Positions 484 to 25,122 of a stretch of DNA of 28,068 nucleotides are shown one piece after another; within the stretch, counting starts at the first letter, position 1, and the number at the start of each line of letters is the position of its first letter. The position numbers and the translations under genes were made by a program. Below the pieces are notes generated by a model. That model made no database searches, was not told where the DNA came from, and worked only from the letters and a program-made list of their open reading frames with translations. This DNA is from a virus (Duplodnaviria > Heunggongvirae > Uroviricota > Caudoviricetes). The stretch covers positions 1 to 28,068 of IMG/VR virus record IMGVR_UViG_2663762948_000001. One strand, 5' to 3'.

Positions 484-494
484 GCTGCCCCCAT

Positions 495-517
495 AAAAAA
501 ACCACCCGTAGGTGGTT
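495..517 (-). terminator. Intrinsic terminator-like hairpin plus U-tract between the small membrane ORF and gene I
   Basis: Minus-strand RNA has stem AACCACC/GGUGGUU with loop UACG (517..500), followed by a U run (499..495), then the I start codon. Confidence 0.5.
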
Positions 518-532
518 TGTTAATTTACGCTC

Positions 533-757
533 TCAAAGCCCAGCTTTTTTCCTTGCTTCTTCAAGGTAGTTTTCTTTCGACTGGTCTTTGTTATTTGCCT
601 CGAAGTTTGGATCTACTATTTTTGATAATTTCTGGTCGATAGACTCAAGTAATTCAACCTGCCTGTTCGCTCTGACGCTGGCGCGGTTGATGAAAAACCA
701 GAGAATTAACCCAATAAAAATACCGACGAAGATCCAACCAAACCCAACTGTATACAT
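533..757 (-). CDS. Small single-pass membrane protein, moron inserted between K and I; paralog of 5922..6110
   Basis: 74 aa; N-terminal hydrophobic helix, then a charged coiled-coil-like tail; AAGGAG RBS upstream of ATG 757..755. Shares the motif R-x-S-x-RAN-x-QVE-x-L-x-x-I with the 5922..6110 product. Confidence 0.65.
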   Translation of the reverse strand: MYTVGFGWIFVGIFIGLILWFFINRASVRANRQVELLESIDQKLSKIVDPNFEANNKDQSKENYLEEARKKAGL

Positions 758-804
758 ATCGTTCTCCTTGCCGTGTACTACACGATAGTATCAGTGACAG
801 TTTG

Positions 805-1515
805 TTAAATAAAATTCTGATGTCTAAGAATCTTCATCGTCCTTTCCTGCCAGTAGCCACCATACGGCACGCGTTGGCTCAGATGTCCGTACAGGTGGTG
901 CAGCAGCATATTGCCCTCCAGCAGAATTCCAGCGTGGTTCCACTTATCAGCCTGGACCTGCATGATCACCATATCGCCGGGTTTCGGTGGCCCGTCGAAT
1001 TCCCGGAATCCGCACTCATACCAGCAATCCTGATAGAAGTTGTCCGGATAGTCGTTTTCCCACCAGGGATAATCAACCCGGTAATCGTGGAGCTCGATAC
1101 CATGCGTTTGCCGGAAATAGCTCATTACCAGCCCCCAGCAGTCGAAGTGTCCAAGCACAAACGGACGCTCCAGCAGTGGCAGTTCTCCGCGCGGCTGGAT
1201 GGTGCGTAAATCCCCCTCCGGCCAGCTCACAATATGCCAGGGTAAAAGCGTTGCGTCGCATTGCGCTTTATCCAGTTCGCTCGGCTGCGTTGTGGCGTCA
1301 GGGTGACTGTGAACGATGGCGATCACCGTTCCCCAGTCCTCAGCAGCTGCGTAGTCTTCGGGGCAAAGGACAAAATTGTCCTCCGGCGCCGCGGCAAGAT
1401 TCCGGCACGGGAAATAACGTTCAACGCGGCTTTTCTGCGCCACCACGCCGCAACACTCAAGAGGATATTCAGCTGCAGCATGCGCCATAATCGCATCTAT
1501 GGTTTTCTGACGCAT
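805..1515 (-). CDS. K: Tail assembly protein K (JAB/MPN plus NlpC/P60-type)
   Basis: 236 aa; ECCG and HSHP motifs typical of JAB/MPN and a Cys/His C-terminal half; ATG start overlaps the L stop; position matches lambda K. Confidence 0.8.
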   Translation of the reverse strand: MRQKTIDAIMAHAAAEYPLECCGVVAQKSRVERYFPCRNLAAAPEDNFVLCPEDYAAAEDWGTVIAIVHSHPDATTQPSELDKAQCDATLLPWHIVSWPEGDLRTIQPRGELPLLERPFVLGHFDCWGLVMSYFRQTHGIELHDYRVDYPWWENDYPDNFYQDCWYECGFREFDGPPKPGDMVIMQVQADKWNHAGILLEGNMLLHHLYGHLSQRVPYGGYWQERTMKILRHQNFI

Positions 1516-2612: not shown

Positions 2613-5600
2613 TTATCGGGTTCCTTTCATTGCGTTCCAGATGTCACCGCCAGGGCGAATATCTCGCATGATGTTCTGCTTATATCGCTGATCAATATAT
2701 TTACCGACATCAGCACCAAATTGCTCAAGGCCGGGTGAAGTCTGCGTGGAAGTATTTCCGTTGCCATCGATGGTGATGTAAACCTGTGGAGCCGAAGATA
2801 CAGCCTGACCACCACCAGTGCCAACAGCCCGAACGCCAAGCGAACCATCAGCAGCACGGGTAAGCGGCATAATGGCTTCAGGTCCAGCCTCTGCAAACAC
2901 ACCCGCTCCTTTGGCAAAAGCAAAAAGCTGAGGGGTCTGAAACACGCCATTGCTGTATGCGCTCAGGGACGGAGAGTCGTAAACATTACCCTTCGCGTTA
3001 AAGGTGAAGTTCGCGCCAGCGTTCTGAATTGCAGTACCGCTACTGGCGGCAGCGGCGGAAGATGCGCCAAAGCTGAAGAGAGAACCAATTGAACTGACGC
3101 CGTTAGCAACAGCCATGTTCACCAGAACGTTCTGGATGATCTTCAGTACGCTCACGCCCCAGTCCTTCCAGCTGTCAACGTTGCCATTGAGCATGTCGGT
3201 GATCGTGGTGACCGCGCCACCCATGGCCTGCTTCATGCCGTCAGCGGCCATGGAAGAATAATCAGTAGCTTCGTCCACCCAGTTCGCATAACCCTCAGAC
3301 AGTCCCGTCATCCAGTCGTCACGCTGCGCATCAGAAGCTGCGTAATATCCCTCCTGGTCGCGCAGGCGCTCTTCGAGGTAGCGCTTATTAAGTGCCAGCC
3401 CCTGCTGATAGAACGTCTCGTCGATTTCACCAGCCTGACGCTGGCGGAGAAGATCGGTATTCTTCTGCTCAAACTCCTTACGCAGATTGAACTGCTCCTG
3501 AAGTCTTTCACGGAACCTGGTTCCCTGCCCGTAGCCCAGCAGTTGCGCTTCATTGGCTGCGCGGGCGCTGGCGTTACTGTCAGCAAGGTTGGCTTCGTAA
3601 TTTCGCAGTTGCTCACGCAATTTAACCTGATCGATGAGAGCAGCATTACGCATAACTTCGGCTTTCTGGGCCTGACTTAGCGTAGAAAGCTCACCCTGGC
3701 TTACCTGATATTTAACCTTTGCCAGCTCGGTATTCTGCCCTTGCAGAGCGATCTGCTCTTTTTGCTGCTTGATCAGCTTGTCATAGGTATCAGCTGTTTT
3801 TTCCGCCTCGGATTTTCCACCCTTATGGCGGCTTGAGTTACGAATTGCTTGTAATTGCCTGGCAGACTCAACTTCCATGCTGACATATTTCTCACGCCAA
3901 CCAGCTGGAAGGTTCAGATCAGATGCATCGAATTCTGCCTGCTTTCGAGCCTTATCCAAACCCTGAAGGCCAGATAACTCAAGCTGTCGCTGTGCTTTCT
4001 CAATAGCTTGTTGTTGCTTATTATCAAGCGCAGGAAGTACAGGTCCTGCATATTTTGGTGGGGACACTGCTGTAGACTGTCTGGAAACCTTGTTCAGCCG
4101 GTCATACATCTCTGTAAGAGAACTTACGGCGCCAGCCATTTCTACTGTTTTATTTATAGCCTGATCAGTTATGTCGTTTATTAACTGTTGTGTTTGCTTT
4201 CTTTTATTGAGCATTTGCTCAAGTCGGCCTTCTTCAACCGCAAGTTCTGAAGCAAAGTCTGCGGCTTTCTCAACCGCATCGTTATACAGCCATGTCCCCT
4301 CTGAAGCAGAATTGGCTGCTAATTTTGCGTTATAAAGTTGATTGGATAATTCAGCAACTTTCTGCTTCTGCTGTTCAATCGCACTATTCTGAGCATCCAG
4401 TGAAATATTCGCCTGTCCAAGGTTGGCGGATATCTGCGTCTGAGACATTGATTTCAGATTATCTCGTACCTGCTCGATTGTGTCCGCATATTGGATTGCA
4501 GATTCCCTGGCTTGTTCTTGGCGTTGATACATCGTGTACCACGCCCCAGCACCCAACATTAAAATTCCTGGCAAACCACCAACTAACGACAAAAGACCCG
4601 TAGCGCCAGTTTTTACAAGCCCCAGCACTGATGTTGCAGAGTTAAGTGCCTGCTGAGAGGCTGCAACGGCTCTGTTTGACTGTACCAGTGCCGCATTTGC
4701 TGTAATCATTGCCCGGCGCTTGGATATGGCATTTTGAGTGGCAGTAGCCTCAGCATTAGTATTCTTTGCCAGCACAAGTTCTGACTGAGCAAGCTGGTAA
4801 GCTCGCTCAGCAGCAATAGCATCGGCGGCGGCCTTGCGTTGTGATTGGGTAGCAGATTCAGCCCTTGCAGCTGCGAGCGCAATTTCGTTCTTTCTGGCAT
4901 CTATTAATTGCGCCGTCTGGTTCCCAAGATCGCCAAACATCCCTCCAAGATAGCGAGCTCCACCTATCGCAGCCAAAGCTCCGGCAGCCGTAGCCACAGT
5001 GTCTATATTGTCAGAAACCGTATTCAATACGGCAACAAGAGTACTTGTCGCACCAGTGGCTTCATTAGCGCCACCTACCCATGCCATGAAAGCATTTTCG
5101 ACTTTCGTCGTGGCAGCAGAAACGGTCTGCGGCATTGCCTCAAATTCACCACGCATAGTGCCAAGTTGACTTATCAGGGCCGGGACAACTTTATCTGCGG
5201 TTAGCATCCCCTGATCGGCCATTGCCTTCAGATCTTTACGAGCTACACCCATCCCTGCGGCAAGAGCACGGATAACTCGATCACCGTTTTCGTTGACGGA
5301 GTTAAATTCCTCGCCTCGAAGAACACCCTGCGCCAGAGCCTGGCTGAACTGCGTGATTACCGAACTCGCTTCAGACGCGCTTGCGCCTGACAGCTTAAGC
5401 CCTGTTGATATAGCCTCGGTTACCTTCAGAACCTCTTCTGAACTGTAGCCATATTCACGCATAGAAGCGGCTGAACGCGCAAAAAGACTCGCATTATCAG
5501 AGAAGGCGGTTCCGGTTCGCTGGCTAATATCCATCAGCGCCCGCTGGGACTCCGTGAAATCATCTGACGACTGGGAAGCCTGCTTTAGCCTGGCATTAAC

Positions 5601-5891
5601 AGAGCTCCATTCATCGGCCAGCGATATAAGATGACCAGTCGCAAATGCTCCAGCAAATGCACCAGCCATTCCCAGTGCTGAGGCCTTCGCGGTGTTTATT
5701 TGACTAGTTACCTCAGCCAAGGCACGCTGAGTTTCACGCGAAGCTGCGGCCGATTGGCGTCCTCCAGTCTGCATTACCCGGTAATAGTCATTCCCCATTC
5801 TTGAAGCACGAGAAATTTCAGACTGGAATGACTGAGAGTTTGCAGATATTTTGATGATCAGTTCGCGCAACGTAGCCATATTTTCACCCAT
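2613..5891 (-). CDS. H: Tail tape measure protein
   Basis: 1092 aa, Ala/Gln-rich coiled-coil, low-complexity, longest ORF in the tail cluster, located between G/GT and M. Confidence 0.9.
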   Translation of the reverse strand: MGENMATLRELIIKISANSQSFQSEISRASRMGNDYYRVMQTGGRQSAAASRETQRALAEVTSQINTAKASALGMAGAFAGAFATGHLISLADEWSSVNARLKQASQSSDDFTESQRALMDISQRTGTAFSDNASLFARSAASMREYGYSSEEVLKVTEAISTGLKLSGASASEASSVITQFSQALAQGVLRGEEFNSVNENGDRVIRALAAGMGVARKDLKAMADQGMLTADKVVPALISQLGTMRGEFEAMPQTVSAATTKVENAFMAWVGGANEATGATSTLVAVLNTVSDNIDTVATAAGALAAIGGARYLGGMFGDLGNQTAQLIDARKNEIALAAARAESATQSQRKAAADAIAAERAYQLAQSELVLAKNTNAEATATQNAISKRRAMITANAALVQSNRAVAASQQALNSATSVLGLVKTGATGLLSLVGGLPGILMLGAGAWYTMYQRQEQARESAIQYADTIEQVRDNLKSMSQTQISANLGQANISLDAQNSAIEQQKQKVAELSNQLYNAKLAANSASEGTWLYNDAVEKAADFASELAVEEGRLEQMLNKRKQTQQLINDITDQAINKTVEMAGAVSSLTEMYDRLNKVSRQSTAVSPPKYAGPVLPALDNKQQQAIEKAQRQLELSGLQGLDKARKQAEFDASDLNLPAGWREKYVSMEVESARQLQAIRNSSRHKGGKSEAEKTADTYDKLIKQQKEQIALQGQNTELAKVKYQVSQGELSTLSQAQKAEVMRNAALIDQVKLREQLRNYEANLADSNASARAANEAQLLGYGQGTRFRERLQEQFNLRKEFEQKNTDLLRQRQAGEIDETFYQQGLALNKRYLEERLRDQEGYYAASDAQRDDWMTGLSEGYANWVDEATDYSSMAADGMKQAMGGAVTTITDMLNGNVDSWKDWGVSVLKIIQNVLVNMAVANGVSSIGSLFSFGASSAAAASSGTAIQNAGANFTFNAKGNVYDSPSLSAYSNGVFQTPQLFAFAKGAGVFAEAGPEAIMPLTRAADGSLGVRAVGTGGGQAVSSAPQVYITIDGNGNTSTQTSPGLEQFGADVGKYIDQRYKQNIMRDIRPGGDIWNAMKGTR

Positions 5892-5914
5892 AAAAAAACC
5901 CGCTTGATAGCGGG
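5892..5914 (-). terminator. Intrinsic terminator-like hairpin plus U7 directly upstream of the tape measure start codon
   Basis: Minus-strand RNA has stem CCCGC/GCGGG with loop UAUCAA (5914..5899), then UUUUUUU (5898..5892), then AUG at 5891. Confidence 0.5.
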
Positions 5915-5921: not shown

Positions 5922-6110
5922 TTATAAACTGTCTTTTCTTTGGTGAGCGACTTGTATTAATAAATCTATTTGCGCATCTTGCTTTTTATTTATCTCTTTA
6001 AGGGCTTCAACTTGTTCATTTGCCCTTGTGCTAAACCGTAATAAATAAAAAATCACAATTAGATTTATCAGCCAGCCGAATATTCCAAACACTACTACCA
6101 GTGGTTCCAT
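5922..6110 (-). CDS. Small single-pass membrane protein, moron between G/GT and tape measure (the position of HK97 gp15)
   Basis: 62 aa; N-terminal TM helix, then a charged tail; AAGGAGG RBS upstream of ATG 6110..6108; followed by its own terminator. Confidence 0.7.
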   Translation of the reverse strand: MEPLVVVFGIFGWLINLIVIFYLLRFSTRANEQVEALKEINKKQDAQIDLLIQVAHQRKDSL

Positions 6111-6167: not shown

Positions 6168-6478
6168 TTATTGTGTCGCAGCTGTAAGTGCCGCCTCAAG
6201 CCCTGCAAACGGGTCCTTCGGTTCTGATTGCTCATCACCACCCCAGCGCAGGATCGCATCGTCCAGCGGTACTTTTGCCCCCTGCGAGCCGTAGATGGCA
6301 GAGACAATCTGCGCTGCATGGATATCACCGCGAATATCGCCAACCGGGCTTTGCCTGTCGTACTCAATCCACATCAGAAGCTCGCTTGCCGTCATATTCT
6401 GCCGAAGCTCTGAGAGCGTGCGCCCCATCCGGAGCGCAAGCGACATCAGAAACTTTACGCCGGGGGTTGAGACTTTTC
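6168..6478 (-). CDS. T: T-frame part of the tail assembly chaperone GT (made by -1 frameshift from G)
   Basis: This frame is -1 relative to G and is open from the GGGAAAAG site down to the stop at 6168; product contains MTASELLMWIEY... Confidence 0.7.
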
Positions 6479-6841
6479 CCGCGCTTCGTCCGCATTGTTG
6501 ATCAGGTCAAGCGCCTGTTTGAGCAGACGTGAGTGCACGGGCCCGTAAATTTCACGCACCTGCTCTTCTTCGTCTACGCTGAATACCGGTTGCTTATCGG
6601 TGTCACACAGAACGTCAATGAAGAGCACCACGTCAGCGCAAAGATTACGGTGCGCCTTTTCCGATACCGACACATTTTCATCGTCGCCCCCCCCTTTCAC
6701 CACCTCCTGCCAGCGCAGCCAGGCTTCACCTGACGGCTCACGGAGAACCACTTTGACACCTTCCCACTCAGGGACAACGACCGTCTTATGGCGAAAGCCA
6801 GCCATTTTCGCCATGGCTAATTGTTTTAAAGTTTGCGACAT
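6455..6841 (-). CDS. G: Tail assembly chaperone G
   Basis: 128 aa between the major tail gene and the T frame; acidic C-terminal region; overlaps the T frame. Confidence 0.8.
   Translation of the reverse strand: MSQTLKQLAMAKMAGFRHKTVVVPEWEGVKVVLREPSGEAWLRWQEVVKGGGDDENVSVSEKAHRNLCADVVLFIDVLCDTDKQPVFSVDEEEQVREIYGPVHSRLLKQALDLINNADEAREKSQPPA
6473..6481 (-). promoter_or_regulatory. Candidate programmed -1 ribosomal frameshift site (G to GT)
   Basis: Minus strand reads CGGGAAAAG; the G frame decodes CGG GAA AAG, the -1 frame decodes GGA AAA and stays open into T. Lambda uses GGGAAAG at the equivalent place (from memory). Confidence 0.55.
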
Positions 6842-6875: not shown

Positions 6876-7580
6876 TTAACTGATAGTAAGGGTGCAGGCA
6901 GCTGAGGTAACCGTTTTGACCGGAGAAGAAGAATCCGTAACCACACAGGTGTAATCACCTGCATCACCTGAAACTGCGGTGGCTTTATTAAAGGTATCGG
7001 ATGTCTGCCCGCTGACGGTGCTACCTGCCTTCTTCCAGGTGTAGGCATACGGAGGCTTACCACCGGCAGCTACTACAGCCATGCTGATCGCAGCCCCCAC
7101 CGCTACAGACAGTGAGGAAGGAAGATCAGTGGTCAGTTTAAGTACAGAGTCAATCTGGACAGGCTTGCCTTTAAGGCGCAGTGAGAATGTAGCTGCCACA
7201 ACACCATTGGTACCAGATGACCAGGTATGCTGGCGAACTTCGGCCAGGAACTTAAAACCATTACCTGACGGGAAGATGATCTGGAAGCCGTAAGTGGTGT
7301 CGTTGTCATACGCATCACGCAAGGCGTCCTGCGCTGGATTATTGTAGAAGTTGCCGGACAGAGAGATTTCTGACGGAGAAGGCAGGCCGTTGATGTTCTC
7401 CTGCTCGGTAGAGCAAAGTGTTGTTACGTCGATATCCTGCTTCTGGCCACCAGTGAACTGAATTTCTTTGATGGTGCAACTCAGATCGAGAAAGGTGGCG
7501 GAATCCATCGTTTCTTTGGTGGACGGCAGGGAGGAAATAAGGATCTTCGTCAGCTGCGATTTTTCATAAAGTGCAGACAT
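6876..7580 (-). CDS. V: Major tail protein with C-terminal Ig-like domain
   Basis: 234 aa; C-terminus has a Big_2-like pattern (YTWKK...GDAGDYTCVVTD); sits upstream of G/GT. Confidence 0.8.
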   Translation of the reverse strand: MSALYEKSQLTKILISSLPSTKETMDSATFLDLSCTIKEIQFTGGQKQDIDVTTLCSTEQENINGLPSPSEISLSGNFYNNPAQDALRDAYDNDTTYGFQIIFPSGNGFKFLAEVRQHTWSSGTNGVVAATFSLRLKGKPVQIDSVLKLTTDLPSSLSVAVGAAISMAVVAAGGKPPYAYTWKKAGSTVSGQTSDTFNKATAVSGDAGDYTCVVTDSSSPVKTVTSAACTLTIS

Positions 7581-10982: not shown

Positions 10983-12257
10983 TTAAGCCCCGTTATTACG
11001 GGGCTCTTTGTTGGTTCCTAAATCGGTGATCGGCACGTATTGCGACTGGCGCATTGCCACATCGCCACCCGGCAATGGCGGGAGGTTGTCCGTTCGTCGC
11101 ATCTCGTTGATGGTGCGTAGCCCTGCCTCTCCCATTGCCTTCATAAAGGCAGCGCGGGATGCCGAATCGCCCCTCAGCAGGCCGTCGAGGTTGTGCTCAG
11201 CATGAATGCGGCCAACATCCTTAGCAGGAATAAGCCACCGCTGAATGCTGTTTTCCCACCTGGAGATATAGGGCTGCAGGGTGTACTGCAGGAAGCCGAG
11301 ATTCTGCTGCTCGATGCCCGATCCCCAGCTCGTTGATTTCTCGACGTCGCCGACAAGGTGAGGCGGTACGCCAAAGAATCGCGCCAGTTCACTTACCTGA
11401 AATTTTCGGGACGCCATCATTTCGGCATCCTGCGGAGTTACGCCAATTGCCGATGTAGAAAAACCCGCTTCCAGAATCCAGAGGCGTTTTTTTACCGGGC
11501 CGCCGGCGATCTCTTTGAAGTTCTCTTCGACCTGGGAGCGCTGCTGTTCAGTTAGCACTTTTTCGCCAGTTGAGAGGATTTGCGGAGACTTGGCGCCGTT
11601 GGCAAAGAAATCTCGCTGCTGGTCCTCCATCGCAACTGCCACACCTGCCGATTTACAGGCAAAAGCAATGGGTGACAGGCCTACAAGCCCGGTGAATCCG
11701 AAGCCTTTAAGGTGAAAAATCTCTTTCTGCGAAAAGTCGGCGTATTCGCTGTCGCGTTGATAGCGATAAACCACTTTTTTTCCGACTAGTTTCACATCCA
11801 TATTGGCAGACTGAAGCGGGAGAAGGCTGATCACGTCACCTGCGCTGTTGCGGTCCACAAGTGCATATGCGTTACCGTAGAAACAGAGCTGCATCGTCAT
11901 GGCCTCCCTGAATTCTTGGGCGGTCATGTACTGATTCGGCGAGTAGCGCAGCAGTCGCGCCAGTGGATTGCTCAAATCCACTTTTTTACGGTTGTCATTC
12001 TGGTCTGTTTCGAAGACATCAAGCGGTAAGCATGCCGTGAGCGTTGAAATCAGGCTCACGCAGCGCCACACAGTCGAAATTTGCAGTATCCGTTCATCGT
12101 TAATGGATGAATCGCCCAGGTGTCCGTGGGCCGAAACAGGCCCCGTCTGTGAGCCCTGATTTGGGGTGACTAAACGCCCGCCGACAAACCAGGACTGCAG
12201 CCTTGCCCACCAGCCGTTATTGGTTCGCAGGTCAATCGTGTATTTAGGTTCTTCCAT
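10983..12257 (-). CDS. Portal protein
   Basis: About 424 aa; ATG at 12257..12255 overlaps the large terminase stop by 1 nt; the ORF track's first codon at 12260 is GTG. Confidence 0.85.
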   Translation of the reverse strand: MEEPKYTIDLRTNNGWWARLQSWFVGGRLVTPNQGSQTGPVSAHGHLGDSSINDERILQISTVWRCVSLISTLTACLPLDVFETDQNDNRKKVDLSNPLARLLRYSPNQYMTAQEFREAMTMQLCFYGNAYALVDRNSAGDVISLLPLQSANMDVKLVGKKVVYRYQRDSEYADFSQKEIFHLKGFGFTGLVGLSPIAFACKSAGVAVAMEDQQRDFFANGAKSPQILSTGEKVLTEQQRSQVEENFKEIAGGPVKKRLWILEAGFSTSAIGVTPQDAEMMASRKFQVSELARFFGVPPHLVGDVEKSTSWGSGIEQQNLGFLQYTLQPYISRWENSIQRWLIPAKDVGRIHAEHNLDGLLRGDSASRAAFMKAMGEAGLRTINEMRRTDNLPPLPGGDVAMRQSQYVPITDLGTNKEPRNNGA

Positions 12258-13771
12258 CACATGCTCAGCGGTCGGAAAATGAAGTCGTCGAAGTCACCAC
12301 CCTGTTCGGTAACTTCCCCATTAGCAGCACCAACGGACATTGTCATTGCGACCATGCCATCAATACGGCCCGTTGCTTTGGATTTATCGAGCTTGCGGTT
12401 GCCAGCAGCATCTTTCACCACCACCGCATTCACAGCACACATCGTTAATACTGGGTGCATGCCATGCCTTACGCGCCCGTTAAGCATCAGAGACTCCAGC
12501 GTGTCTACAGCTGGCCCCATATCCTTAAAGCCCTGGCCGAACTCGACCAGCGGGAGGCTCAGCCCAATGGCATCGGCATCCTTCCTGAACTGGTCAATGC
12601 GCCAGCGGTCAAAAGCCATCGAGGTAAGGTCGAAATCACCGATAATTTCAGCTATATCCGCAACGACGAATGAGTAATCCACCGAAGCTCCTGGCGTGGT
12701 GCGCAGCAGCCCCTCCCTCACCCAAACGTCATAGGGTGCTCGGTCCGTTTTGGTTCGCTCTTCAAGAGTCTTTTGCGGTGTCCAGAAGAAGGGGAAAACA
12801 TCCCAGACACCATCATCTGCTTCACCAGCGATAACCAGCGCCGTTAAGTCGTTCCTGGCTGACAGATCCAGCCCCGCGTACCACTTCCTCGGGGTGTTAA
12901 TCGGCATCTCTCCGCAAAGCTCCCACACGCTGCGGGAGATAAACGGCGATACGGTAGACACGCGCTGATTGAGGTTGAGGTTTCGGAAGGTGTTTTCGAA
13001 GCTTGGCATTCGGCAAGCTTTCTCAGCCTGGCGCGCCATGTCTTTTTCTGACCTGAATGTTCCCAGTGCCGGGTTCGCAGCCAGCCAGGACTCGCGTTTA
13101 CTGATATCAGCGTCTTTTGGCGCTTCATAAACGTGGCACACGATGTGCGGATCTTTCGATTTGACCGCATCATCAATCCAGATGCTAAGCAGGTCAGCAT
13201 CGTTTGCTGCCTGCGTACTGATAACGATTAGCAGCGGGTTTTCATGAGCCCCCTGCGCCGTAGTTATTGCATCGATAAAATCATCCTGCGGGCCCCTAAC
13301 CTGCCCTGTTTCATCGAGAATGGCCAGAATGGGGGAAAGGCCGTGCGTCGTCTTACCTTCTGCGGATAAAGCCTTGTATTCGACGTTACACGGCAGGCCG
13401 ATCAGCTTTTTGCCGCTGGGCGTAATGTGCACAATCTCCTGCAGCTTGGGGTTCAGGTTAACCATCTTCACCGCGAGGTTAAAAACGATGGCCGCCTGTT
13501 CCCGGCTGAGTGCACCGCTGACAATCTGCGTGTTCTGCACCGCTTCAGGCCCCACCAGGTGAGCCAGCAGAATTCCGGCAATCAGGCCAGTCTTACCATT
13601 TTTTCGGGCGATGCTGAGGATCGCCATATCCGTTCCGGCTGGATTGTCGTAAACCGCCAGGATGAAATCTTTCTGAAAGGGGTCCAACCGCATAGGTTGG
13701 CCGATAAGCTTGCCTTCTGGCACGATGCAAAAGCGCTCAATGAACGCTATTACACGCTCACCTCGCGTCAT
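12257..13771 (-). CDS. Terminase large subunit
   Basis: 504 aa; N-terminal ATPase region with a Walker A-like SIARKNGKT, C-terminal nuclease-sized region; precedes portal. Confidence 0.9.
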   Translation of the reverse strand: MTRGERVIAFIERFCIVPEGKLIGQPMRLDPFQKDFILAVYDNPAGTDMAILSIARKNGKTGLIAGILLAHLVGPEAVQNTQIVSGALSREQAAIVFNLAVKMVNLNPKLQEIVHITPSGKKLIGLPCNVEYKALSAEGKTTHGLSPILAILDETGQVRGPQDDFIDAITTAQGAHENPLLIVISTQAANDADLLSIWIDDAVKSKDPHIVCHVYEAPKDADISKRESWLAANPALGTFRSEKDMARQAEKACRMPSFENTFRNLNLNQRVSTVSPFISRSVWELCGEMPINTPRKWYAGLDLSARNDLTALVIAGEADDGVWDVFPFFWTPQKTLEERTKTDRAPYDVWVREGLLRTTPGASVDYSFVVADIAEIIGDFDLTSMAFDRWRIDQFRKDADAIGLSLPLVEFGQGFKDMGPAVDTLESLMLNGRVRHGMHPVLTMCAVNAVVVKDAAGNRKLDKSKATGRIDGMVAMTMSVGAANGEVTEQGGDFDDFIFRPLSM

Positions 13772-14263: not shown

Positions 14264-14319
14264 ATGTCAACACCTTAAAACTAAAAAAATCGGGTTAGCG
14301 TTAAATTCAAACTTTGGCG

Positions 14320-14447
14320 GCGGTCATTTAGGGCAAAGGTTTTGAAGATTTGATCCCCCCCCTGCCATGAATGCGATTCATTCTCATTTGATATCGTTGC
14401 ATTTGAAATGATTTCACATGATAGATAATCGACTTGCCGCCGCCGCG
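14320..14447. other. Candidate cos region
   Basis: Non-coding gap between the HNH/small ORF and small terminase, with inverted GC-rich elements GGCGGCGGTCA (14324..14334, plus) and GCGGCGGCGGCAAG (14445..14432, minus) that resemble lambda cosN GGGCGGCGACCT, and a C8 tract at 14355..14362. Confidence 0.35.
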
Positions 14448-14651
14448 CTATGCCGAATGTTTGTCTACCTGTTCGAGTTTGTGATCGCCTTTCCCATACT
14501 CGGACCACACATGTCCTGAGACGGTCAATGTCGGTACGTCCTCGCCTACGGTGTGGGAGAACTGGATAGACGTTACGCGCTTCATCTCCACGCCATCAAT
14601 CGCCAGCTGAACAAACTTACCGTCTCGGTATTCAATGATGAGGTCTTTCAT
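14448..14651 (-). CDS. Hypothetical small protein
   Basis: 67 aa; ATG 14651..14649 overlaps the HNH stop by 1 nt; no recognisable motif. Confidence 0.45.
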   Translation of the reverse strand: MKDLIIEYRDGKFVQLAIDGVEMKRVTSIQFSHTVGEDVPTLTVSGHVWSEYGKGDHKLEQVDKHSA

Positions 14652-15004
14652 TACGTGCTCCAGTGAGACGCAGGATCGAGCGGGTAGCCGTTGGCATCAC
14701 AACCGATTACCGCGCCGCTCTTCTCCATTCTCTGTTTCGTTGAGTCATGATGCGCTTTGCACAGTGGCTGCCAGTTCTCTTTACTCCAGAACAGGAGCTG
14801 TGCTTTCGATATGGCCAGAGGGTTACCTGACTTAAGCGCATCTTTCAGTTTGTGGGGCACGATATGGTCGACCACCGTTGCTGGTGTTATGCGCCCCTGC
14901 TGCTCGCACATCACACACAGTGGGTGCTGCTGGAGAAAACGCAGACGGGCCTTATCCCATCGGCTGCCATATACGCGGGGCTCTTTGTTCATGCCAGTCT
15001 CCAT
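14651..15004 (-). CDS. HNH endonuclease
   Basis: 117 aa with CxxC...HxxxH...CxxxH spacing typical of HNH; adjacent to cos and terminase as in HK97-like phages. Confidence 0.8.
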   Translation of the reverse strand: METGMNKEPRVYGSRWDKARLRFLQQHPLCVMCEQQGRITPATVVDHIVPHKLKDALKSGNPLAISKAQLLFWSKENWQPLCKAHHDSTKQRMEKSGAVIGCDANGYPLDPASHWST

Positions 15005-15384
15005 GCACGGCGGCGTTCTGGTTCATGACCAGTTTGTAAATCTCTAACTGGAATTTCTGTTCTTCAGTCATGGGAATAATCTCTGCCATTGTTGGCTCCG
15101 TTTATCCGTTAAAAGGGATATCAGTTAAGTTATCCCGTGTAGGGTATAAGCCATTGTCGAGACCACTCATTGAATTGCCTCTGCAATAACCGATGTCTTT
15201 CCATCAGTCCGCCACCACAAAGAATCTTTTTTGCCATAAGGCAGGAGGTTTATCTTTCAGTGGCTGCCAGTGTTATTTCCCCACTTTCTGGCTTGGGTTG
15301 TTTCGCGGTGCTGCCGTTAATTAGTGACCAGAAATTAACTCCGGTTTCATTATCAAGCCCACCCGCAGATGAGCTTTGTAATGG

Positions 15385-15642
15385 TTACTTCGCTTTTGCT
15401 TCCGCTCGCTTACGCCGGCGCTCTTCTTTCCTCTCGGCTTTTGCCATGTCCATGAATGCCTGCATGATCGAGTTCCGCATCATGTAGCTGACAAAGTGAT
15501 GGTTGACGCAACCGTTAATACGGAGTTGCTCGCCAAACTCATCCACCGAGGCCAATGCTTCCATCATGCCCTTCTCGCCTTTCATGAACTCTGAGAAGTC
15601 GCGCCCCGCTCTGGAGGCGCATTCTATTATTCGGGTGCTCAT
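15385..15642 (-). CDS. Hypothetical protein with basic C-terminal tail, translationally coupled to the KilA-N gene
   Basis: ATG 15642..15640 lies 2 nt after the KilA-N stop; product MSTRIIECASR... ends KAERKEERRRKRAEAKAK. Confidence 0.45.
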   Translation of the reverse strand: MSTRIIECASRAGRDFSEFMKGEKGMMEALASVDEFGEQLRINGCVNHHFVSYMMRNSIMQAFMDMAKAERKEERRRKRAEAKAK

Positions 15643-15644
15643 GA

Positions 15645-16373
15645 TCAGGCCGCCGCATAGAGCAATTTCATCTGCCCTTTCACCGGGAATGCCGACATGC
15701 AACGCGCTTCGAAATCACGATAATCAGAGCACCCATTGGCAATGCTGGTAACGGCAATGATCTGTCGCTCAACCAATGTCAGCGCGTCAGGTTTAAGGTG
15801 CTGATGGATTTTGTCTCCCGCAGCCAGCCGTCTTTTAACCTCTGCATATACTTCTGGTGGTAATACCGGGCCATATACCCACTTGGCACTGATCATCCCA
15901 AATAGTGCTGGGCGACGACCTGGTCGATGGCGGGGCAGCCCTGACATTTTGAACATCGCAGAATAAAACGGATCGCTAAACCTCTTTTCCCATGGCTGAG
16001 ATTTATCCAGAAGGAAAATAGCCTTTATTCTTTCATCGTCGATATGATGAACGGAACCCTGAATGATTGCGTCAATTTGCTCATCACACCAGATCTCAAA
16101 ATCTACAGAAAGCCATCGAGCAAATCTGACCGCCAGTTTTGGGTGAAGCCATGTTCCGCCGCCACGGTCTTTGCGAGCGCGGCTGGTTTTTACATATGTG
16201 ATATTCCCATATCTACTCTTTAACGCCTCGATGTAACGGACAGTCTCAGGAAGCCTAAGCCACTGAGCCGGCTCCTTGTTGAACTTGTCAGCTGCCGCAG
16301 TCGCGTCAAACCAGCCATCGTCAGAAAAACGCATGGGATGGCCTTCGAAATCAATCGGGATGATATTGGACAT
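15645..16373 (-). CDS. KilA-N domain protein
   Basis: Probable start MSNIIPIDFEGHPMRF at ATG 16373 (the ORF track start at 16448 is GTG); the N-terminal region has the KilA-N/APSES-like pattern ...TWLHPKLAVRFARWLSVDFEIW. Confidence 0.65.
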   Translation of the reverse strand: MSNIIPIDFEGHPMRFSDDGWFDATAAADKFNKEPAQWLRLPETVRYIEALKSRYGNITYVKTSRARKDRGGGTWLHPKLAVRFARWLSVDFEIWCDEQIDAIIQGSVHHIDDERIKAIFLLDKSQPWEKRFSDPFYSAMFKMSGLPRHRPGRRPALFGMISAKWVYGPVLPPEVYAEVKRRLAAGDKIHQHLKPDALTLVERQIIAVTSIANGCSDYRDFEARCMSAFPVKGQMKLLYAAA

Positions 16374-16523
16374 CGTATTTACCTTTTTGGTGATATGAGC
16401 CAGTTCTCGCAGACATGGACAGCCCAAGAGCGGCACGATGTAAGCCACCGTCCTGTCTCTGTCTCATATCCCGAAAAGCTCTTGGTTGATATGCGCACGA
16501 GAATGCGCGTTTACTGCGGACAT

Positions 16524-16546
16524 AAAAAAGCCCCGCATCGCGAGGC
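16524..16546 (-). terminator. Intrinsic terminator downstream of Rz
   Basis: Minus-strand RNA has stem GCCUCGC/GCGGGGC with loop GAU, followed by U6. Confidence 0.55.
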
Positions 16547-16578
16547 TCATTAAATTGACTTTGTGATTTGCAAAAAAA

Positions 16579-17016
16579 TTATTTCAGGCATTGCGTCCTG
16601 ATGTATTCCTGCAGGTAGTTAACCTGCGCGGTTATCCTGTCGATTCCACTTCGGAGACGGTAATAATTGAGTTCAGCATCTGCTGTAAGTCTTGGGCTTT
16701 CTCCATCGCCCATGCTGCTGGCTCCGGTCGTTGACTTTGTACAGGTGGCGGCGACTTGCAGGCGCTTACGACCAGCAGAAACATCAGCACGGAGACTTTC
16801 GATAGTCGCGTTAGCATCAGCAAGCTCCTTTGTGTATCTGGCGTCAAGTTCTGCTACATCACGTTGACGCTTCTGCATGTCAGCGATTGTGGATGTGGCT
16901 TTATCGCGCTGCTCTTTGTAGGTAATGGCGTTATCACGGTAATGATTAACAGCCCATGACAGGCAGACGATGATGCAGATAACCAGAGCGGAGATAATCG
17001 CGGTGACTCTGCTCAT
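16579..17016 (-). CDS. Rz: Rz i-spanin
   Basis: 145 aa; N-terminal TM helix, then periplasmic coiled-coil; ATGA overlap with R; lambda-type position. Confidence 0.85.
16632..16817 (-). CDS. Rz1: Rz1 o-spanin lipoprotein embedded in Rz (+1 frame)
   Basis: Embedded ORF with signal peptide and lipobox (LLVVSAC), then a proline-rich region [14 protein letters not shown]. Start chosen at the internal Met preceding the signal peptide. Confidence 0.65.
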
Positions 17017-17489
17017 ACCTCAATCTCTCTGACCGTTCCGCCAGCCTCTTTGAATTTTGCAATCAGGCTGTCAGCCTTATGCTCGAACTGACCATAACCA
17101 GCGCCAGGCAGTGAAGCCCAGATATTGCTGCAACGGTCGATTGCCTGACGGATATCACCGCGATCAATCATCGGCAAAGCGCCACGCTCTTTAATCTGCT
17201 GCAATGCCACAGCGTCCTGGCTTTTCGGAGAGAAGTCTTTCAGGCCAAGCTGCTTACGATAGGCATCCCACCAACGGGAAAGAAGCTGGTAACGGCCTGC
17301 AGCTGTTGATTTGAGTTTGGGGTTTAGCGTGACAAGTTTGCGAGGGTGATCTGAGTAATCAGTGAATAGCTCTCCGCCTACAATGACGTCATAACCATGA
17401 TTTCTGGTTTTCTGACGTCCGTTATCAGTTCCCTCCGACCACGCCAGCATATCGAGGAACGCCTTACGTTGATTATTGATTTCTACCAT
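17013..17489 (-). CDS. R: Endolysin (lambda R-type lytic transglycosylase)
   Basis: 158 aa starting [39 protein letters not shown]; appears near-identical to lambda R from memory. Confidence 0.9.
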
Positions 17490-17796
17490 CTTCTACTCCG
17501 GCTTTTTTAGCAGCGAAGCGTTTGATAAGCGAACCAATCGAGTCAGTACCGATGTAGCCGATAAACACGCTCGTTATATAAGCGAGATTGCTACTTAGTC
17601 CGGCGAAGTCGAGAAGGTCACGAATGAACCAGGCGATAATGGCGCACATCGTTGCGTCGATTACTGTTTTTGTAAACGCACCGCCATTATATCTGCCGCG
17701 AAGGTACGCCATTGCAAACGCAAGGATTGCCCCGATGCCTTGTTCCTTTGCCGCGAGAATGGCGGCTAACAGGTCATGTTTTTCTGGCATCTTCAT
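17473..17796 (-). CDS. S: Holin / antiholin (lambda S-type, dual start)
   Basis: 107 aa with the Met-Lys-Met dual-start motif and three TM segments; appears near-identical to lambda S from memory. Confidence 0.9.
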
Positions 17797-18680
17797 GTCT
17801 TACCCCCAGAAGGGGATCTGTTCAAATTAGGAATTATAGATATGGTCGCTTGAACAAATCCGGGTTACGGTTGATTTGTAACGGGTTTGTTCGTGACCGC
17901 ATTCATGAGCAAATCAGGCGTGGATTGCTCCAACAATACATGCCGCTCATATCACGAAGCCCAGCCATTGATGCTGGGTTTTCTTTTTTAAAGCGCACTA
18001 GACAACCGTATCCACAGAGTGTCAGCAATGAGTTGGTTAGGTCTGGTTCTTGGTAGAAGTACGCTTTAAAAAATGGGCTGAGGGTTGTAGCCCAAAATAC
18101 TGAGGGAATGGTAAGGATGAACAACGGTTTTGCTCTGGGTGGATTTGGCTGTGGTGGCCGGCGCTGATCTCCGGCTTGTATACAGGCACCTTGTTCTTCC
18201 GAAGCTCTCCTGCGCGCATCAGCCTGCGCATTCACCACACCGGAAAGAGCACTTGCGGAGTCGAACCGCCTTGGCTTCTAGAACTTTCGCATATAGCTAA
18301 TCGCTAGTCTCCGTCACCAGTAATGCTCTTTCCGTTGTGTGCCCATTATTAATCACACCGGGCCAGTGCGCCAGATTCGTTGATGAGGAACTGGAATACC
18401 TCACTGGTGTTTAGCGGTTAAGCTACGGCCAGATACATTTCTTCGTTTGCATTTATCTTTGTGATCAGTTTCTAAAAAACCGCAAAGTCGCTTACGAAAA
18501 CCATCGGAAAGAACACATCTGTCTGCCGGGTCTCTGAATGTTCTTCCAATCCAGCCCTATCAGTGCGTCGATATGCTCTTACCTGATAGCCTTCAATCTG
18601 GCTCAGGACTCTCGCGTATGAGTGTCAACGTGTCGTGCAGCACGCATTAACTCGAAAGTCATGACCGGATTGCAGAAATG

Positions 18681-18708
18681 AAAAAGCCCCGAGCTATTAA
18701 CTCAGGGC
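18681..18708 (-). terminator. Intrinsic terminator of the short pR' transcript (tR'-equivalent)
   Basis: Minus-strand RNA has an 8-bp stem GCCCUGAG/CUCGGGGC with loop UUAAUAG, followed by UUUUUC. Confidence 0.5.
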
Positions 18709-18744
18709 TTTATTTAACGAGTGCATTTATCCATCGTTGAGTCA

Positions 18745-18773
18745 AATTTACCCAATTTTATTCAATAAGTCAA
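18745..18773 (-). promoter_or_regulatory. Late promoter pR' with adjacent qut-like region
   Basis: Minus strand reads TTGACT (18773..18768), a 17-nt spacer, then TAAATT (18750..18745), followed by TTTGACTCAACGATGG; this matches the lambda pR' region as I recall it. Confidence 0.6.
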
Positions 18774-18815
18774 TATCATGCCGTTAATATGTTGCCATCC
18801 GTGGCAATCATGCTG

Positions 18816-19439
18816 CTAACGTGTGACCGCATTCAAAATGTTGTCTGCGATTGACTCTTCCTTGTGGCATTGCACCACCAGAGCGTCATACAGCGGCTTA
18901 ACAGTGCGTGACCAGGTGGGTTGAGTAAGGTTTGGGATTAGCATCGTTACAGCGCGATATGCGGCGCTTGCTGGCATTCTTGAATAGCCGACACCTTTGC
19001 ATCTTCCGCACTCTTTCTCAACAACTCTCCCCAACTGCTCTGTTTTTGATATATCAACCGCACGGCCTGTACCGTGGCAATCTCTGCATCTTGCGCCCGG
19101 CGTCGCGGCACTACGGCAATAATCCGCATAAGCGAATGTTGCGAGCACTTGCAGTACCTTTGCCTTAGTATTTCCTTCGAGCTTTGCCACACCACGGTAT
19201 TTCCCCGATACCTTGTGTGCAAATTGCATCAGATAGTTGATAGCCTTTTGTTTGTCGTTCTGGCTGAGTTCGTGCTTACCACAGAATGCAGCCATTCCGA
19301 ATCCGGCTTGTGATTGCGCCATCCCCATAGCAGCCATCACATCAGTACCGGAAAGAGAGTCAGAAGCCGTGGCCCGTGGTGAGTCGCTCATCATCGGGCT
19401 TTTTGGCGAATGAAATTTAGCTACGCTTTCGAGTCTCAT
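18816..19439 (-). CDS. Q: Late antiterminator Q
   Basis: 207 aa starting MRLESVAKFHSPKSPMMSDSPRATASD with a Cys-rich zinc-binding region; appears near-identical to lambda Q from memory. Confidence 0.85.
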   Translation of the reverse strand: MRLESVAKFHSPKSPMMSDSPRATASDSLSGTDVMAAMGMAQSQAGFGMAAFCGKHELSQNDKQKAINYLMQFAHKVSGKYRGVAKLEGNTKAKVLQVLATFAYADYCRSAATPGARCRDCHGTGRAVDISKTEQLGRVVEKECGRCKGVGYSRMPASAAYRAVTMLIPNLTQPTWSRTVKPLYDALVVQCHKEESIADNILNAVTR

Positions 19440-19624
19440 CGTCTTCCCCTCTTGCCCTGTTTGACCATCAGGACGCCGTTAACTATTACATGACGCTCAC
19501 CTTTGCTGTCTCGGTTGTACTTGAGCACTGTTCCTCTTGCGCAGGAAAGCATCCTCGCCACTTCGGTCTTATTGCCTCGTGTCTGGATAAGAAGCTCTGG
19601 TATCGTTTGAATTGTGGCGTTCAT
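19436..19624 (-). CDS. ninH: NinH-like protein
   Basis: 62 aa immediately upstream of Q; ...QTIPELLIQTRGNKTEVARMLSC... resembles lambda NinH. Confidence 0.55.
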   Translation of the reverse strand: MNATIQTIPELLIQTRGNKTEVARMLSCARGTVLKYNRDSKGERHVIVNGVLMVKQGKRGRR

Positions 19625-19983
19625 ACGTTCTCCAGTTCGGTGATTTTTATTCCAAGCCTTCCGCCTGGTACTTTCACGCCACGAATTACGCGAATGTCAT
19701 CGAATTGCTCGTCGTCTTCCGCAAATCCGGCGTGGATAAGGGAGTCGAGTAAACCCTTCAGGATGTTATCGAGGTCGCGGCGGCGGGAGTCTGGAACGTC
19801 TGCGATGACTTTGATGCGGAGTCTTGATTTGGTGAAAATGTCTAACTTGAGTTGGCGGATGATTTGCTGAACGTCTTTTCGGTATTTCTGGCCTTTATCG
19901 CTGATGTAGTATTGGCTTCCCCGTCTTCGCCAGTAGGTGTTCAGCGACGGTGGGTATGGAAGTACAAACTGATATTCGTTCAT
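19621..19983 (-). CDS. rusA: Holliday junction resolvase RusA
   Basis: 120 aa starting MNEYQFVLPYPPSLNTYWRR, typical RusA N-terminus; nin-region position. Confidence 0.8.
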   Translation of the reverse strand: MNEYQFVLPYPPSLNTYWRRRGSQYYISDKGQKYRKDVQQIIRQLKLDIFTKSRLRIKVIADVPDSRRRDLDNILKGLLDSLIHAGFAEDDEQFDDIRVIRGVKVPGGRLGIKITELENV

Positions 19984-20270
19984 GGCTTAATCTTCCCCTC
20001 CTTCAGCAGTATCGCCTGCGTCCTGATCACGCCTTCGAGGTGGTAAAGTCTGGCGTCTTTGTTGTCGAGATTATGGGTGCGTCGGTCGATTTCATCGTGA
20101 CACGCGCTACAAGCCCATGCGCCGATCAGGTCGTCAGGCTTCATTCCAGTTCCGCAAATTCCAGCCATCCTGTAATGTGCCAGAACTGTAGTTTCAGGAT
20201 TGCCATTGCATACGCCGTAAATACGTACCTGACATTCTCTTCCGCGTGCTTCTTTGCGTAGGTTAGCCAT
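19980..20270 (-). CDS. YbcO-like DUF1364 protein (putative nuclease)
   Basis: 96 aa with RGRECQVR...CSACHDEIDRR; resembles E. coli DLP12 YbcO from memory. Confidence 0.6.
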   Translation of the reverse strand: MANLRKEARGRECQVRIYGVCNGNPETTVLAHYRMAGICGTGMKPDDLIGAWACSACHDEIDRRTHNLDNKDARLYHLEGVIRTQAILLKEGKIKP

Positions 20271-20539
20271 TATGGTTCGCTCCAGTAATTCTCAATTGCA
20301 GCAGCCATTCTCTGCATCCACTCTGCCAGCTTTAACGCGGCTTCTCTTTCAGAACCACATTTAGGGAAATCCTTCATTTCCATGCTGGCCTTATATGTTC
20401 TGAATGCCAGGTCTCCGGTAATAACCAGATCCTGATCAAGCACAGAGCGTTTATTCCGGTGCTGAACGTAATAGACAGATTCAGTCCGCATTTCTTCTCT
20501 GTCTTTTTTGAAGGAAATAAGCTCAGAGAAATCACTCAT
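20270..20539 (-). CDS. Hypothetical nin-region protein
   Basis: 89 aa, translationally coupled on both sides. Confidence 0.45.
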   Translation of the reverse strand: MSDFSELISFKKDREEMRTESVYYVQHRNKRSVLDQDLVITGDLAFRTYKASMEMKDFPKCGSEREAALKLAEWMQRMAAAIENYWSEP

Positions 20540-20708
20540 CGTCTTCTTCCTCGTACATTGAGCTATTCGGATCGCTCATCAGTTCTGCGCAGCAGTGCTC
20601 ACACACGTGAACTTCCAGCACATGCAGCTTCTGACCGCAGTTAGCGCACGTTAAAGCCCGCTCGACGCTTTCTTTCTGGTATTGAATGGATTGGGATGGG
20701 CTAAGCAT
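20532..20708 (-). CDS. ninF: NinF-like small Cys-rich protein (not in the ORF track; under 60 aa)
   Basis: My manual translation from ATG 20708..20706 gives MLSPSQSIQYQKESVERALTCANCGQKLHVLEVHVCEHCCAELMSDPNSSMYEEEDDE; it overlaps both neighbours by start/stop coupling. Confidence 0.5.
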   Translation of the reverse strand: MLSPSQSIQYQKESVERALTCANCGQKLHVLEVHVCEHCCAELMSDPNSSMYEEEDDE

Positions 20709-21067
20709 TATTGGATTCTCTGCATCATGAGAAAGACAATCATGGCGGCGCGGAGGGGATTTTCATGTATAGCTCGCTTAGATTTACAGTAGGCCACACC
20801 GCGTGCACCCCACTCGTCTTCATCGAGATTGATAATGCTAATCCTGTATTTTTCAATAATCGGCCATGCGTCTGCTGGGTTTGCGCATGGGTTAAAGGAA
20901 CCGCGCTCAACTTCTACTTCAACTGCGTCTCCGTTTACAATGTCTCCCTCAAATGAGACAAACACCATATCGCCATTCTCACCTTCTTTGTAATCCGGTG
21001 ATCCGTTATGAATGGCTTCAAATACCGCCACGTTAATTTCAAAATCACTTAACTGTGAATAATCCAT
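20708..21067 (-). CDS. Hypothetical nin-region protein
   Basis: The ORF track start at 21109 is GTG; a GAGGAA RBS favours ATG 21067 (MDYSQLSDFE...). Acidic protein with no recognised motif. Confidence 0.45.
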   Translation of the reverse strand: MDYSQLSDFEINVAVFEAIHNGSPDYKEGENGDMVFVSFEGDIVNGDAVEVEVERGSFNPCANPADAWPIIEKYRISIINLDEDEWGARGVAYCKSKRAIHENPLRAAMIVFLMMQRIQ

Positions 21068-21242
21068 TGTCATTTCCTCGCACGATGTCTTAGCCACCGG
21101 ATATCCCACAGGTGAGCCGTGTAGTTGAAGGTTTTTACGTCAGATTCTTTTGGGATTGGCTTGCGTTTATTTCTGGAGCGTTTCGTTGGAAGGTATTTGC
21201 AGTTTTCTCAGATGATGTCGGTGAAACTTCGTCGCTGTCGTC

Positions 21243-21653
21243 TCATTCATACCTCCTGTCGGTAAATCTGACACCCTGACCAATAGCCCAGGCTGTCGTG
21301 TACTCAATCAGACTTGCCATACGCTTCACGCTCATCTGCGCGCTGCTTTCGCGAATGTTGACGAATTCGCCTTCAAGGCCGCGCAAAACATCAGCTTCCT
21401 GTTTTGTTGCCACTGCATGACCGCTGATCAACAAAACCTTCCATTGTTCTGGTTTTAACCATTTATCGCGCCACTGAACTTGCCTAGCGATATCTGCGAT
21501 CATCGCGTGAAATTTTGCGTTCTGGTCAAGGTTGCGCTTGTAGTCAGTAATGCGGATGGTGACTGGCTTGTCTTTATCGAGTGGTGTTGCGAGGATGGCA
21601 TTTATTGCGGCTTGCTGTTGTTGCTTAGTTCGGAGGAAGATTGTTTGCTTCAC
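21243..21653 (-). CDS. ninB: Recombination protein NinB
   Basis: 136 aa with ...RNLDQNAKFHAMIADIARQVQW... resembling lambda NinB; GTG start with AAGGAG RBS. Confidence 0.7.
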   Translation of the reverse strand: MKQTIFLRTKQQQQAAINAILATPLDKDKPVTIRITDYKRNLDQNAKFHAMIADIARQVQWRDKWLKPEQWKVLLISGHAVATKQEADVLRGLEGEFVNIRESSAQMSVKRMASLIEYTTAWAIGQGVRFTDRRYE

Positions 21654-21664
21654 TGAATACTCCT

Positions 21665-21850: not shown

Positions 21851-21852
21851 GC

Positions 21853-22137: not shown

Positions 22138-22154
22138 CGATACTTACCCTCAGT

Positions 22155-22361: not shown

Positions 22362-22376
22362 GATTTACTCTCCCCC

Positions 22377-22408: not shown

Positions 22409-22433
22409 GTTATTAGCTCAGTGATGTAGATGG

Positions 22434-25089: not shown

Positions 25090-25122
25090 ATGTAAGTATT
25101 TCCTTAACTAATAAGAAGTTAT

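Follow-up and report, generated by a model that had tools for sequence, protein, structure and literature searches.

A YebO-family moron cassette at the K/I tail junction of HK97-like phages and its possible role in superinfection exclusion

Why should the tail operon of a single phage carry two small genes for related membrane proteins, inserted at two different gene junctions, and what might the second of them do? The question is raised by a virus record of the Caudoviricetes (IMG/VR record IMGVR_UViG_2663762948_000001, positions 1 to 28,068; the whole 28,068-nucleotide (nt) stretch is called the window here). By its nucleotide matches the window is an HK97-like phage, its first 2.3 kb being 96–98% identical to HK97, mEpX1, HK544, ECP1, HK75 and further HK97-like phages, and 88% identical to HK022. 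The tail genes run along the minus strand in the order V, G, T, a 62-amino-acid (aa) open reading frame (ORF), H, M, L, K, a 74-aa ORF and I. The 62-aa product corresponds to gp15 of HK97, a superinfection exclusion protein; the 74-aa ORF, between K and I, is our subject. We propose that positions 484–804 (minus strand) form a self-contained moron cassette at the K/I junction and that the protein encoded there would act as an exclusion factor in lysogens, a proposal to which we give an even chance.

We first ask what the 74-aa gene is. It occupies positions 533–757 on the minus strand (ORF list and family matches) and is, on protein identity and position, gene 20 of phage HK022: the HK022 protein (AAF30371.1) is identical, lies at the same K/I junction and carries the GenBank note 'moron gene product'. 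The unnamed 'hypothetical protein' at K/I in mEpX1, HK544, HK75, HK106, HK446, HK633, mEp234, mEp235, mEp506, HK542 and ECP1 is the same gene with an identical product, and the window holds one further copy with no difference of substance. The ECP1 record calls its K/I gene 'YebO', and RefSeq names the products of gene 20 and of the gp15 gene alike 'YebO family protein'. A ribosome-binding site, AAGGAG (769–764, minus strand), can be read in the sequence 6 nt ahead of the gene 20 ATG. Downstream lies an intrinsic terminator (518–492, minus strand) with an 8-bp GC-rich stem at 518–499 (AAACCACC/GGTGGTTT), a 4-nt loop and a T-run at 498–492 that ends 8 nt upstream of the start codon of I (ATG, 483–481). 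Its folding energy is −13.6 kcal/mol (z = −2.6), and the HK97 record labels it 'putative terminator'. The original prediction, made from the window alone, had described a gene with its own ribosome-binding site and a hairpin shortly before the start of I, and both signals are indeed in place.

The gene is strikingly uniform among its closest relatives. Of 17 related loci compared, drawn from HK97-like phage records and one Enterobacter prophage, 13 match it at 100% nucleotide identity, and the stretch covering gene 20 and the start of I (184–757) is 98–100% identical among HK97-like phages with one exception (locus L026), while the last 300 nt of K (805–1104) diverge by up to 11%. The K stop codon thus marks a mosaic boundary. 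Where copies have diverged, 21 substitutions are synonymous and 8 non-synonymous, with a ratio of non-synonymous to synonymous rates (dN/dS) of 0.06; a second pair also gives 0.06. Gene 20 is a real protein under strong purifying selection. Two antisense ORFs on the plus strand (478–642 and 588–788) were dropped, having no family matches and lying across a substitution pattern that fits the minus-strand frame.

Is gene 20 a part of the tail or cargo carried within it? In the Escherichia coli SZQ1 prophage K (12143–12853) abuts I (12853–13437), so that the K/I junction is empty, and the gp15 cassette is present; the T/H junction is empty in HK022. HK140, ETEC1749 and several E. coli prophages, one of them matching the window's K and L at 97% identity, have an unrelated gene of 110–113 aa at K/I. 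This alternative gene belongs to phrog_914 and begins with a lipoprotein signal (lipobox MAGC or LSGC; L004 1527–1868, L005 2117–2449, L006 1527–1868 and L008 5278–5610). A Serratia prophage has a YebO-like gene and the lipoprotein gene together at K/I. Gene 20 and gp15 occur together in HK75, HK446, mEp234, HK544, HK106, HK633 and mEpX1, and gene 20 occurs without gp15 in HK022, mEp235, HK542, mEp506 and ECP1. A few E. coli genomes contain prophages similar to the window; across 5,426 complete genomes the gene 20 cassette is found in 7, the gp15 cassette in 6 and both in 3. Guanine-plus-cytosine (GC) content is 40% in gene 20 against 55% in K and 50% in I, and 33% in gene 15 against 58% in T. 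The moron status of gene 20 is thus supported by the empty SZQ1 site, the replacement by a lipoprotein gene, the low GC, the gene's own terminator, a conserved candidate promoter element (below) and the HK022 note. The suggestion that the K/I gene is a moron is supported, and comparison of related prophages finds the K/I and T/H cassettes both optional rather than core tail genes.

The same observations bear on the possibility that gene 20 is an accessory gene of the lytic cycle, transcribed only late and serving tail assembly, DNA ejection or lysis timing. Its position on the tail-gene strand, tightly packed among tail genes, would suit such a role, as would the identity of its nucleotide sequence in many phages and the lack of a canonical promoter in a sigma-70 scan. 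Yet gene 20 is missing from close relatives with homologous tails, others have a lipoprotein gene in its place, it stands out in GC content, and its family sits at three different junctions. A terminator placed just ahead of an essential tail gene fits prophage expression, not a late gene, and HK97 is viable despite an amber stop in gene 20. We consider a purely lytic function very improbable.

The amber stop deserves attention in its own right. In HK97 the K/I ORF ends after 32 codons; over 225 nt, HK97 departs from the window only in a C to T change that turns codon 33 from CAG into TAG (L001 6659–6757, in AF069529 at K/I; also L024 3001–3225). This explains why the HK97 record jumps from Gp19 to Gp21 and holds no gene 20 coding sequence. 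HK97 is propagated routinely with the amber codon, so gene 20 is dispensable for lytic growth. Any activity of the gene 20 protein would also have escaped work done with HK97 lysogens. A supE host inserts glutamine at this codon and would be expected to restore the wild-type gene 20 protein.

What gene 20 might do in a lysogen is suggested by its relative at the T/H junction. The gp15 gene (5922–6110, minus strand) encodes 62 aa, differs from the HK97 protein by one residue and is annotated in HK97 as 'moron product'. It was the first gene to be termed a moron; the prophage expresses its protein, which is inserted into the inner membrane and prevents entry of the HK97 and HK75 genomes (PMC3594210), superinfection exclusion by HK97 gp15 being the work of Cumby et al. 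2012 as summarised there. The 74-aa and 62-aa products align in BLASTP with 43% identity over 44 aa (E = 5e-9), the aligned part taking in the last stretch of transmembrane helix and the motif R-x-S-x-RAN-x-QVE-x-L. Both match Pfam YebO (PF13974; 47.7 bits for the 74-aa and 38.7 bits for the 62-aa product, against a gathering score of 27) and both match phrog_5031 (6.9e-41 and 4.2e-29). The original prediction had called the two products paralogues on the strength of a shared motif; the pairwise alignment is significant and reflects more than shared hydrophobicity.

Their cassettes are alike too, as had been noticed from the sequence: in each, a ribosome-binding site (AAGGAG or, for gp15, AGGAGG), an ORF and a terminator are followed by the next tail gene. 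The gp15 terminator (5916–5890, minus strand) comprises a stem at 5916–5897 and a T-run, folds at −13.0 kcal/mol (z = −5.0) and is annotated in HK97. The two proteins are of similar size, lie in the same tail operon and share an N-terminal transmembrane helix followed by the R-x-S-x-RAN-x-QVE-x-L motif. They differ in that gp15 lacks the C-terminal YLEEARKKAGL helix of the gene 20 protein and reads LLRFSTRAN where gene 20 reads FINRASVRAN; in that the gp15 cassette sits directly upstream of the tape-measure gene at T/H, a site not used by gene 20, which is at K/I; and in the type of candidate promoter, −35/−10 for gp15 and extended −10 for gene 20. Exclusion has been demonstrated for gp15 only.

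How did one phage come by both? A recent tandem or dispersed duplication in this phage lineage, with one copy retargeted, would account for the common architecture, which extends even to the same TTTTTATGGG after the terminator in both cassettes, and for the placement of both genes in one PHROG. Against this, the two proteins share just 43% identity across 44 aa, their DNA hardly aligns beyond short runs, gp15 and gene 20 group with different relatives, and the cassettes assort independently among phages; moreover, an old common phage-borne ancestor remains likely, given a Klebsiella protein that joins a gp15-like middle to a gene 20-like tail. A recent duplication is, of all the alternatives weighed here, the one we find hardest to credit. 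The sequence comparisons favour instead the window phage having received two distant members of one family separately. Two origins had been put forward beforehand, duplication with retargeting or independent acquisition from one family: the 43% identity, the closer relatives elsewhere and the independent assortment speak for the second, and the first, as a recent event, is disfavoured.

A scan of IMG/VR set this family in a wider frame. It gave 72 loci, which we classed by their neighbouring genes. YebO-like genes occur at three HK97-type tail junctions, T/H, H/M and K/I, in Escherichia, Klebsiella, Serratia, Pantoea and relatives. The T/H junction has the gp15 type, a 77-aa type from Klebsiella and types from Pantoea; cassettes there with gene 20-like sequence and the YLEEARKKAGL tail are L009/L038, L039 and L007/L044. 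Those at H/M (L032–L034, L040, L041 and L086) are likewise gene 20-like and have the YLEEARKKAGL tail, the T/H and H/M cassettes of this kind coming from Pantoea, Klebsiella and other prophages. Those at K/I comprise the gene 20 type and many others. This C-terminal motif is common to members at all three junctions, and is absent from gp15 and from chromosomal YebO. In the Klebsiella protein from T/H, a middle part resembling that of gp15 (QSAQIDLLIALAH) is joined to the YLEEARKKAGL tail.

A neighbour-joining tree of 41 core columns, unrooted, resolves three clans meeting at one node: chromosomal YebO (86% bootstrap), gp15 with the Klebsiella type (66%), and the gene 20 type with a 154-aa form (67%). 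gp15 groups with Klebsiella T/H proteins, and gene 20 with Serratia and Pantoea proteins from K/I, H/M and T/H, the junction classes being interspersed within the gene 20 type. The tree taken alone cannot decide between one capture of yebO and two. Together with the tree, it is mainly the YLEEARKKAGL motif, shared by way of the Klebsiella intermediate, that points to a single phage-borne ancestor, and the sequences favour one old phage-borne lineage whose members moved between junctions. The 153–154-aa form (L046–L054, about 2950–3430) has a YebO-like N terminus (Pfam YebO, 2.4e-13) and a C-terminal extension of about 100 aa; it belongs to another tail module, in which it follows a short tape-measure-like gene and precedes a DUF6950 gene.

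A cassette active in a lysogen would need a promoter of its own. The original prediction placed a possible one at 808–782 (minus strand), pairing TTAACA (808–803) with TATCGT (787–782) and overlapping the K stop codon. The two hexamers and the overlap are present, but with 15 nt between the hexamers the site was not called in a sigma-70 scan. A better candidate, overlapping it, is an extended −10 element, TGaTACTAT (793–785, minus strand; TG at 793–792, hexamer at 790–785), 27 nt upstream of the gene 20 start. Among 25 representative loci, 17 show the pattern TGnTAnnnT with the start codon 25–33 nt further downstream, where 0.012 per locus would be expected by chance; these 17 include every K/I type (10 of 10), 3 of the 4 types at H/M and the T/H type of Klebsiella. 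Among sigma-70 promoters, the extended −10 element works without a −35 element. It would thus suit a cassette that starts 10–20 nt past the stop codons of varying upstream genes. The gp15 cassette has a candidate promoter of the other kind (6163–6135, minus strand), read from the sequence as TTCACA (6163–6158), a 17-nt spacer and TACGCT (6140–6135). Its layout, TTCACA/17 nt/TACG[CA]T, is conserved in gp15-type loci L055, L069 and L080; the sigma-70 scan does not call it either, the −10 matching at 3 of 6 positions only.

The other end of the cassette is conserved as well. A GC-rich hairpin and T-run follow most family members, the loci without one being those in which a second cargo gene comes next, and the stem sequences vary from locus to locus, which argues for conserved terminator function. 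Between the T-run and the next ATG two types of sequence recur, TTTTTATGGGTGAAAT-ATG and TTTTTATTGYCTGGAGAAAAY-ATG, each at more than one junction (484–498 and 5892–5896 in the window). This suggests that the cassette may bring with it a ribosome-binding site for the downstream tail gene.

We next consider the protein. Gene 20 encodes one N-terminal transmembrane helix, a juxtamembrane motif (NRASVRANRQVELLESI), a disordered linker and the C-terminal YLEEARKKAGL helix. Seventeen columns are invariant among 29 homologues, mainly in W-x4-RASVRAN-Q-x2-LLESI, and R25, S27, R29, N31, Q33 and L37 are invariant in the aligned phage and chromosomal YebO members; an N-terminal transmembrane helix followed by NRASxRxNxQ..LL is thus present in the gene 20 protein. 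AlphaFold2 models a long helix (residues 3–48), a disordered linker and a short C-terminal helix (57–72), with a predicted local distance difference test score (pLDDT) of 80–92 only across the transmembrane and juxtamembrane part. The product is a predicted single-pass inner-membrane protein. In the model the hydrophobic helix covers about residues 6–23; since the N terminus has no positive charge and R25, R29 and R32 follow the hydrophobic stretch, the positive-inside rule predicts an N-out, C-in orientation, with the 5-residue N terminus in the periplasm and the helical C-terminal part in the cytoplasm. Searches of NCBIfam, PDB sequences and Rfam with gene 20 gave no meaningful match. Matches to the NSP4 coiled coil were weak (E at least 0.1) and not significant.

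The gene 20 protein is closer to a host protein than to gp15. E. coli YebO (b1825, downstream of mgrB) is 73% identical to the gene 20 protein over 30 aa (E = 1e-13), a better match than that to gp15 (E = 5e-9). The two proteins hardly differ where the transmembrane helix ends and along the juxtamembrane helix (IGLILWFFINRAS-R-N-Q-ELLE), and both belong to PF13974. For comparison we gathered chromosomal YebO from about 70 species, recognised by the neighbouring genes mgrB, yobH and kdgR. These proteins have 83–99 aa. About 20 residues precede their transmembrane helix, and they also have a QQ+QQxxLL segment, a run of acidic residues and a conserved F-x-x-[IV]-[PA]-E-R end. The phage branch has instead a 5-residue N terminus, RAN[RK]Q, ELLESID-KLS and YLEEARKKAGL. 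Gene 20 lies in a tail operon rather than in mgrB/kdgR synteny, ends in a different C terminus and falls apart from the chromosomal clan. As judged from sequence and setting, it is a phage-borne paralogue of yebO, not an orthologue.

Its closeness to YebO sets up the main rival to an exclusion function, namely lysogenic conversion, with the gene 20 protein mimicking or perturbing host YebO. Its inner-membrane WFFxNRASVRANxQ[VI]ELL helix would join or compete with a YebO complex and so alter some aspect of lysogen physiology related to the envelope. Across Enterobacterales, chromosomal YebO has almost the same juxtamembrane motif, which has diverged in gp15; BLASTP ranks YebO above gp15 as a match; and the phage proteins replace YebO's long N terminus and F-x-x-IPER end with a short N terminus and YLEEARKKAGL. 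The mgrB gene encodes an inhibitor of PhoQ. Host yebO is co-transcribed with mgrB, but YebO is described as of unknown function, hence mimicry predicts no particular phenotype (PMC5861431). Nor would it explain the constant placement of these genes in tail operons beside tape-measure or tip genes, and the only characterised member of the family, gp15, is an exclusion protein (PMC3594210). We judge YebO mimicry unlikely, though it is the strongest competitor.

The reading of gene 20 as an exclusion gene can be set out as follows. In the lysogen, the cassette would be transcribed from its own extended −10 promoter as far as its own terminator; in the lytic cycle, late transcription, being antiterminated, would pass through that terminator. 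The membrane protein would block genome entry by some incoming siphophages at the inner membrane, as gp15 does, with a specificity set by the transmembrane helix and C-terminal tail. That specificity should differ from gp15's, because the transmembrane and C-terminal sequences differ. Since the YebO juxtamembrane motif is kept almost intact, the gene 20 protein probably acts via the same partner or oligomer as YebO. Exclusion is proposed by analogy, because gp15, a relative from one and the same family and tail operon, is made by the prophage, resides in the inner membrane and blocks genome entry, and because the alternative cargo at K/I is a lipoprotein. Lipoproteins such as Cor and Llp form a typical class of exclusion proteins. 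Cor (of HK022, N15 and phi80) and the phrog_914 proteins resemble gene 20 in being small envelope proteins carried as optional cargo in siphophage tail clusters, but their sequences are unrelated to it, and they are lipoproteins, where gene 20 is predicted to encode a single-pass inner-membrane protein. The target of Cor is FhuA, a receptor in the outer membrane (PMC3594210).

Several points weigh against an exclusion function. In the sigma-70 scan no canonical promoter was called at gene 20, and the promoter proposed here rests on the sequence motif; the PADLOC defence models do not match the gene 20 protein; and in the literature that we reached we found no experiment on gene 20 (gp20) of HK97 or HK022. 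As its motif is much closer to YebO than the motif of gp15 is, gene 20 may behave like YebO rather than like gp15. Overexpression or deletion of E. coli YebO has no effect on HK97, and gp15, whose N-terminal part resembles the YebO family, is described as strongly diverged from YebO (PMC3594210).

A broader proposal would cover both functional readings. Portable units, each made up of an extended −10 promoter, a ribosome-binding site, an ORF, a terminator and a ribosome-binding site serving the downstream tail gene, may have moved repeatedly among three tail junctions, and the K/I copy may be a second exclusion protein or a YebO mimic, with a specificity other than gp15's, that went unnoticed through the amber codon of HK97. 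We offer this tentatively and with more doubt than confidence. Some of its elements are already known, namely gene 20 as an annotated moron and the YebO membership that it shares with gp15 in Pfam, PHROGs and RefSeq. The distribution over three junctions, the conserved extended −10 element and the HK97 amber codon as the reason for missing functional data are undescribed in the literature that we reached.

gp15 is the textbook moron and among the few exclusion proteins known to interfere with phage DNA as it enters through the inner membrane. Gene 20, its natural paralogue in the same operon, offers a ready comparison for mapping determinants of specificity, and is useful for being closer to YebO than gp15 is, strongly selected, intact in most relatives and knocked out in HK97. 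Comparing gene 20, gp15 and YebO could also give a function to YebO, a conserved orphan protein of enterobacteria. The value of gene 20 lies in a testable lead, not in the discovery of a new entity.

The remaining tail genes of the window, all on the minus strand, were taken from the ORF list: V (6876–7580), G (6455–6841), T (6168–6446) and H, the tape measure (2613–5891). K (805–1515, stop codon 807–805), the upstream neighbour of the 74-aa ORF, has C40 peptidase and JAB domains, and its HK97 counterpart, at 98% DNA identity, is annotated 'similar to lambda K'. The downstream neighbour I (1–483) is truncated by the window edge and corresponds to HK97 Gp21, 'similar to lambda I'. The C-terminal 85 or so residues of the major tail protein (6876–7130) look, by eye, like an immunoglobulin-like decoration domain (…YTCVVTDSSSPVKTVTSAACTLTIS). 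From about 14300 to 28068 the window continues past the head and terminase genes into an early region, with matches annotated in mEp phage records as helicase and as replication O/P; these matches sit in records with another start coordinate, which suggests that the window is a prophage or a permuted record rather than a structural module alone.

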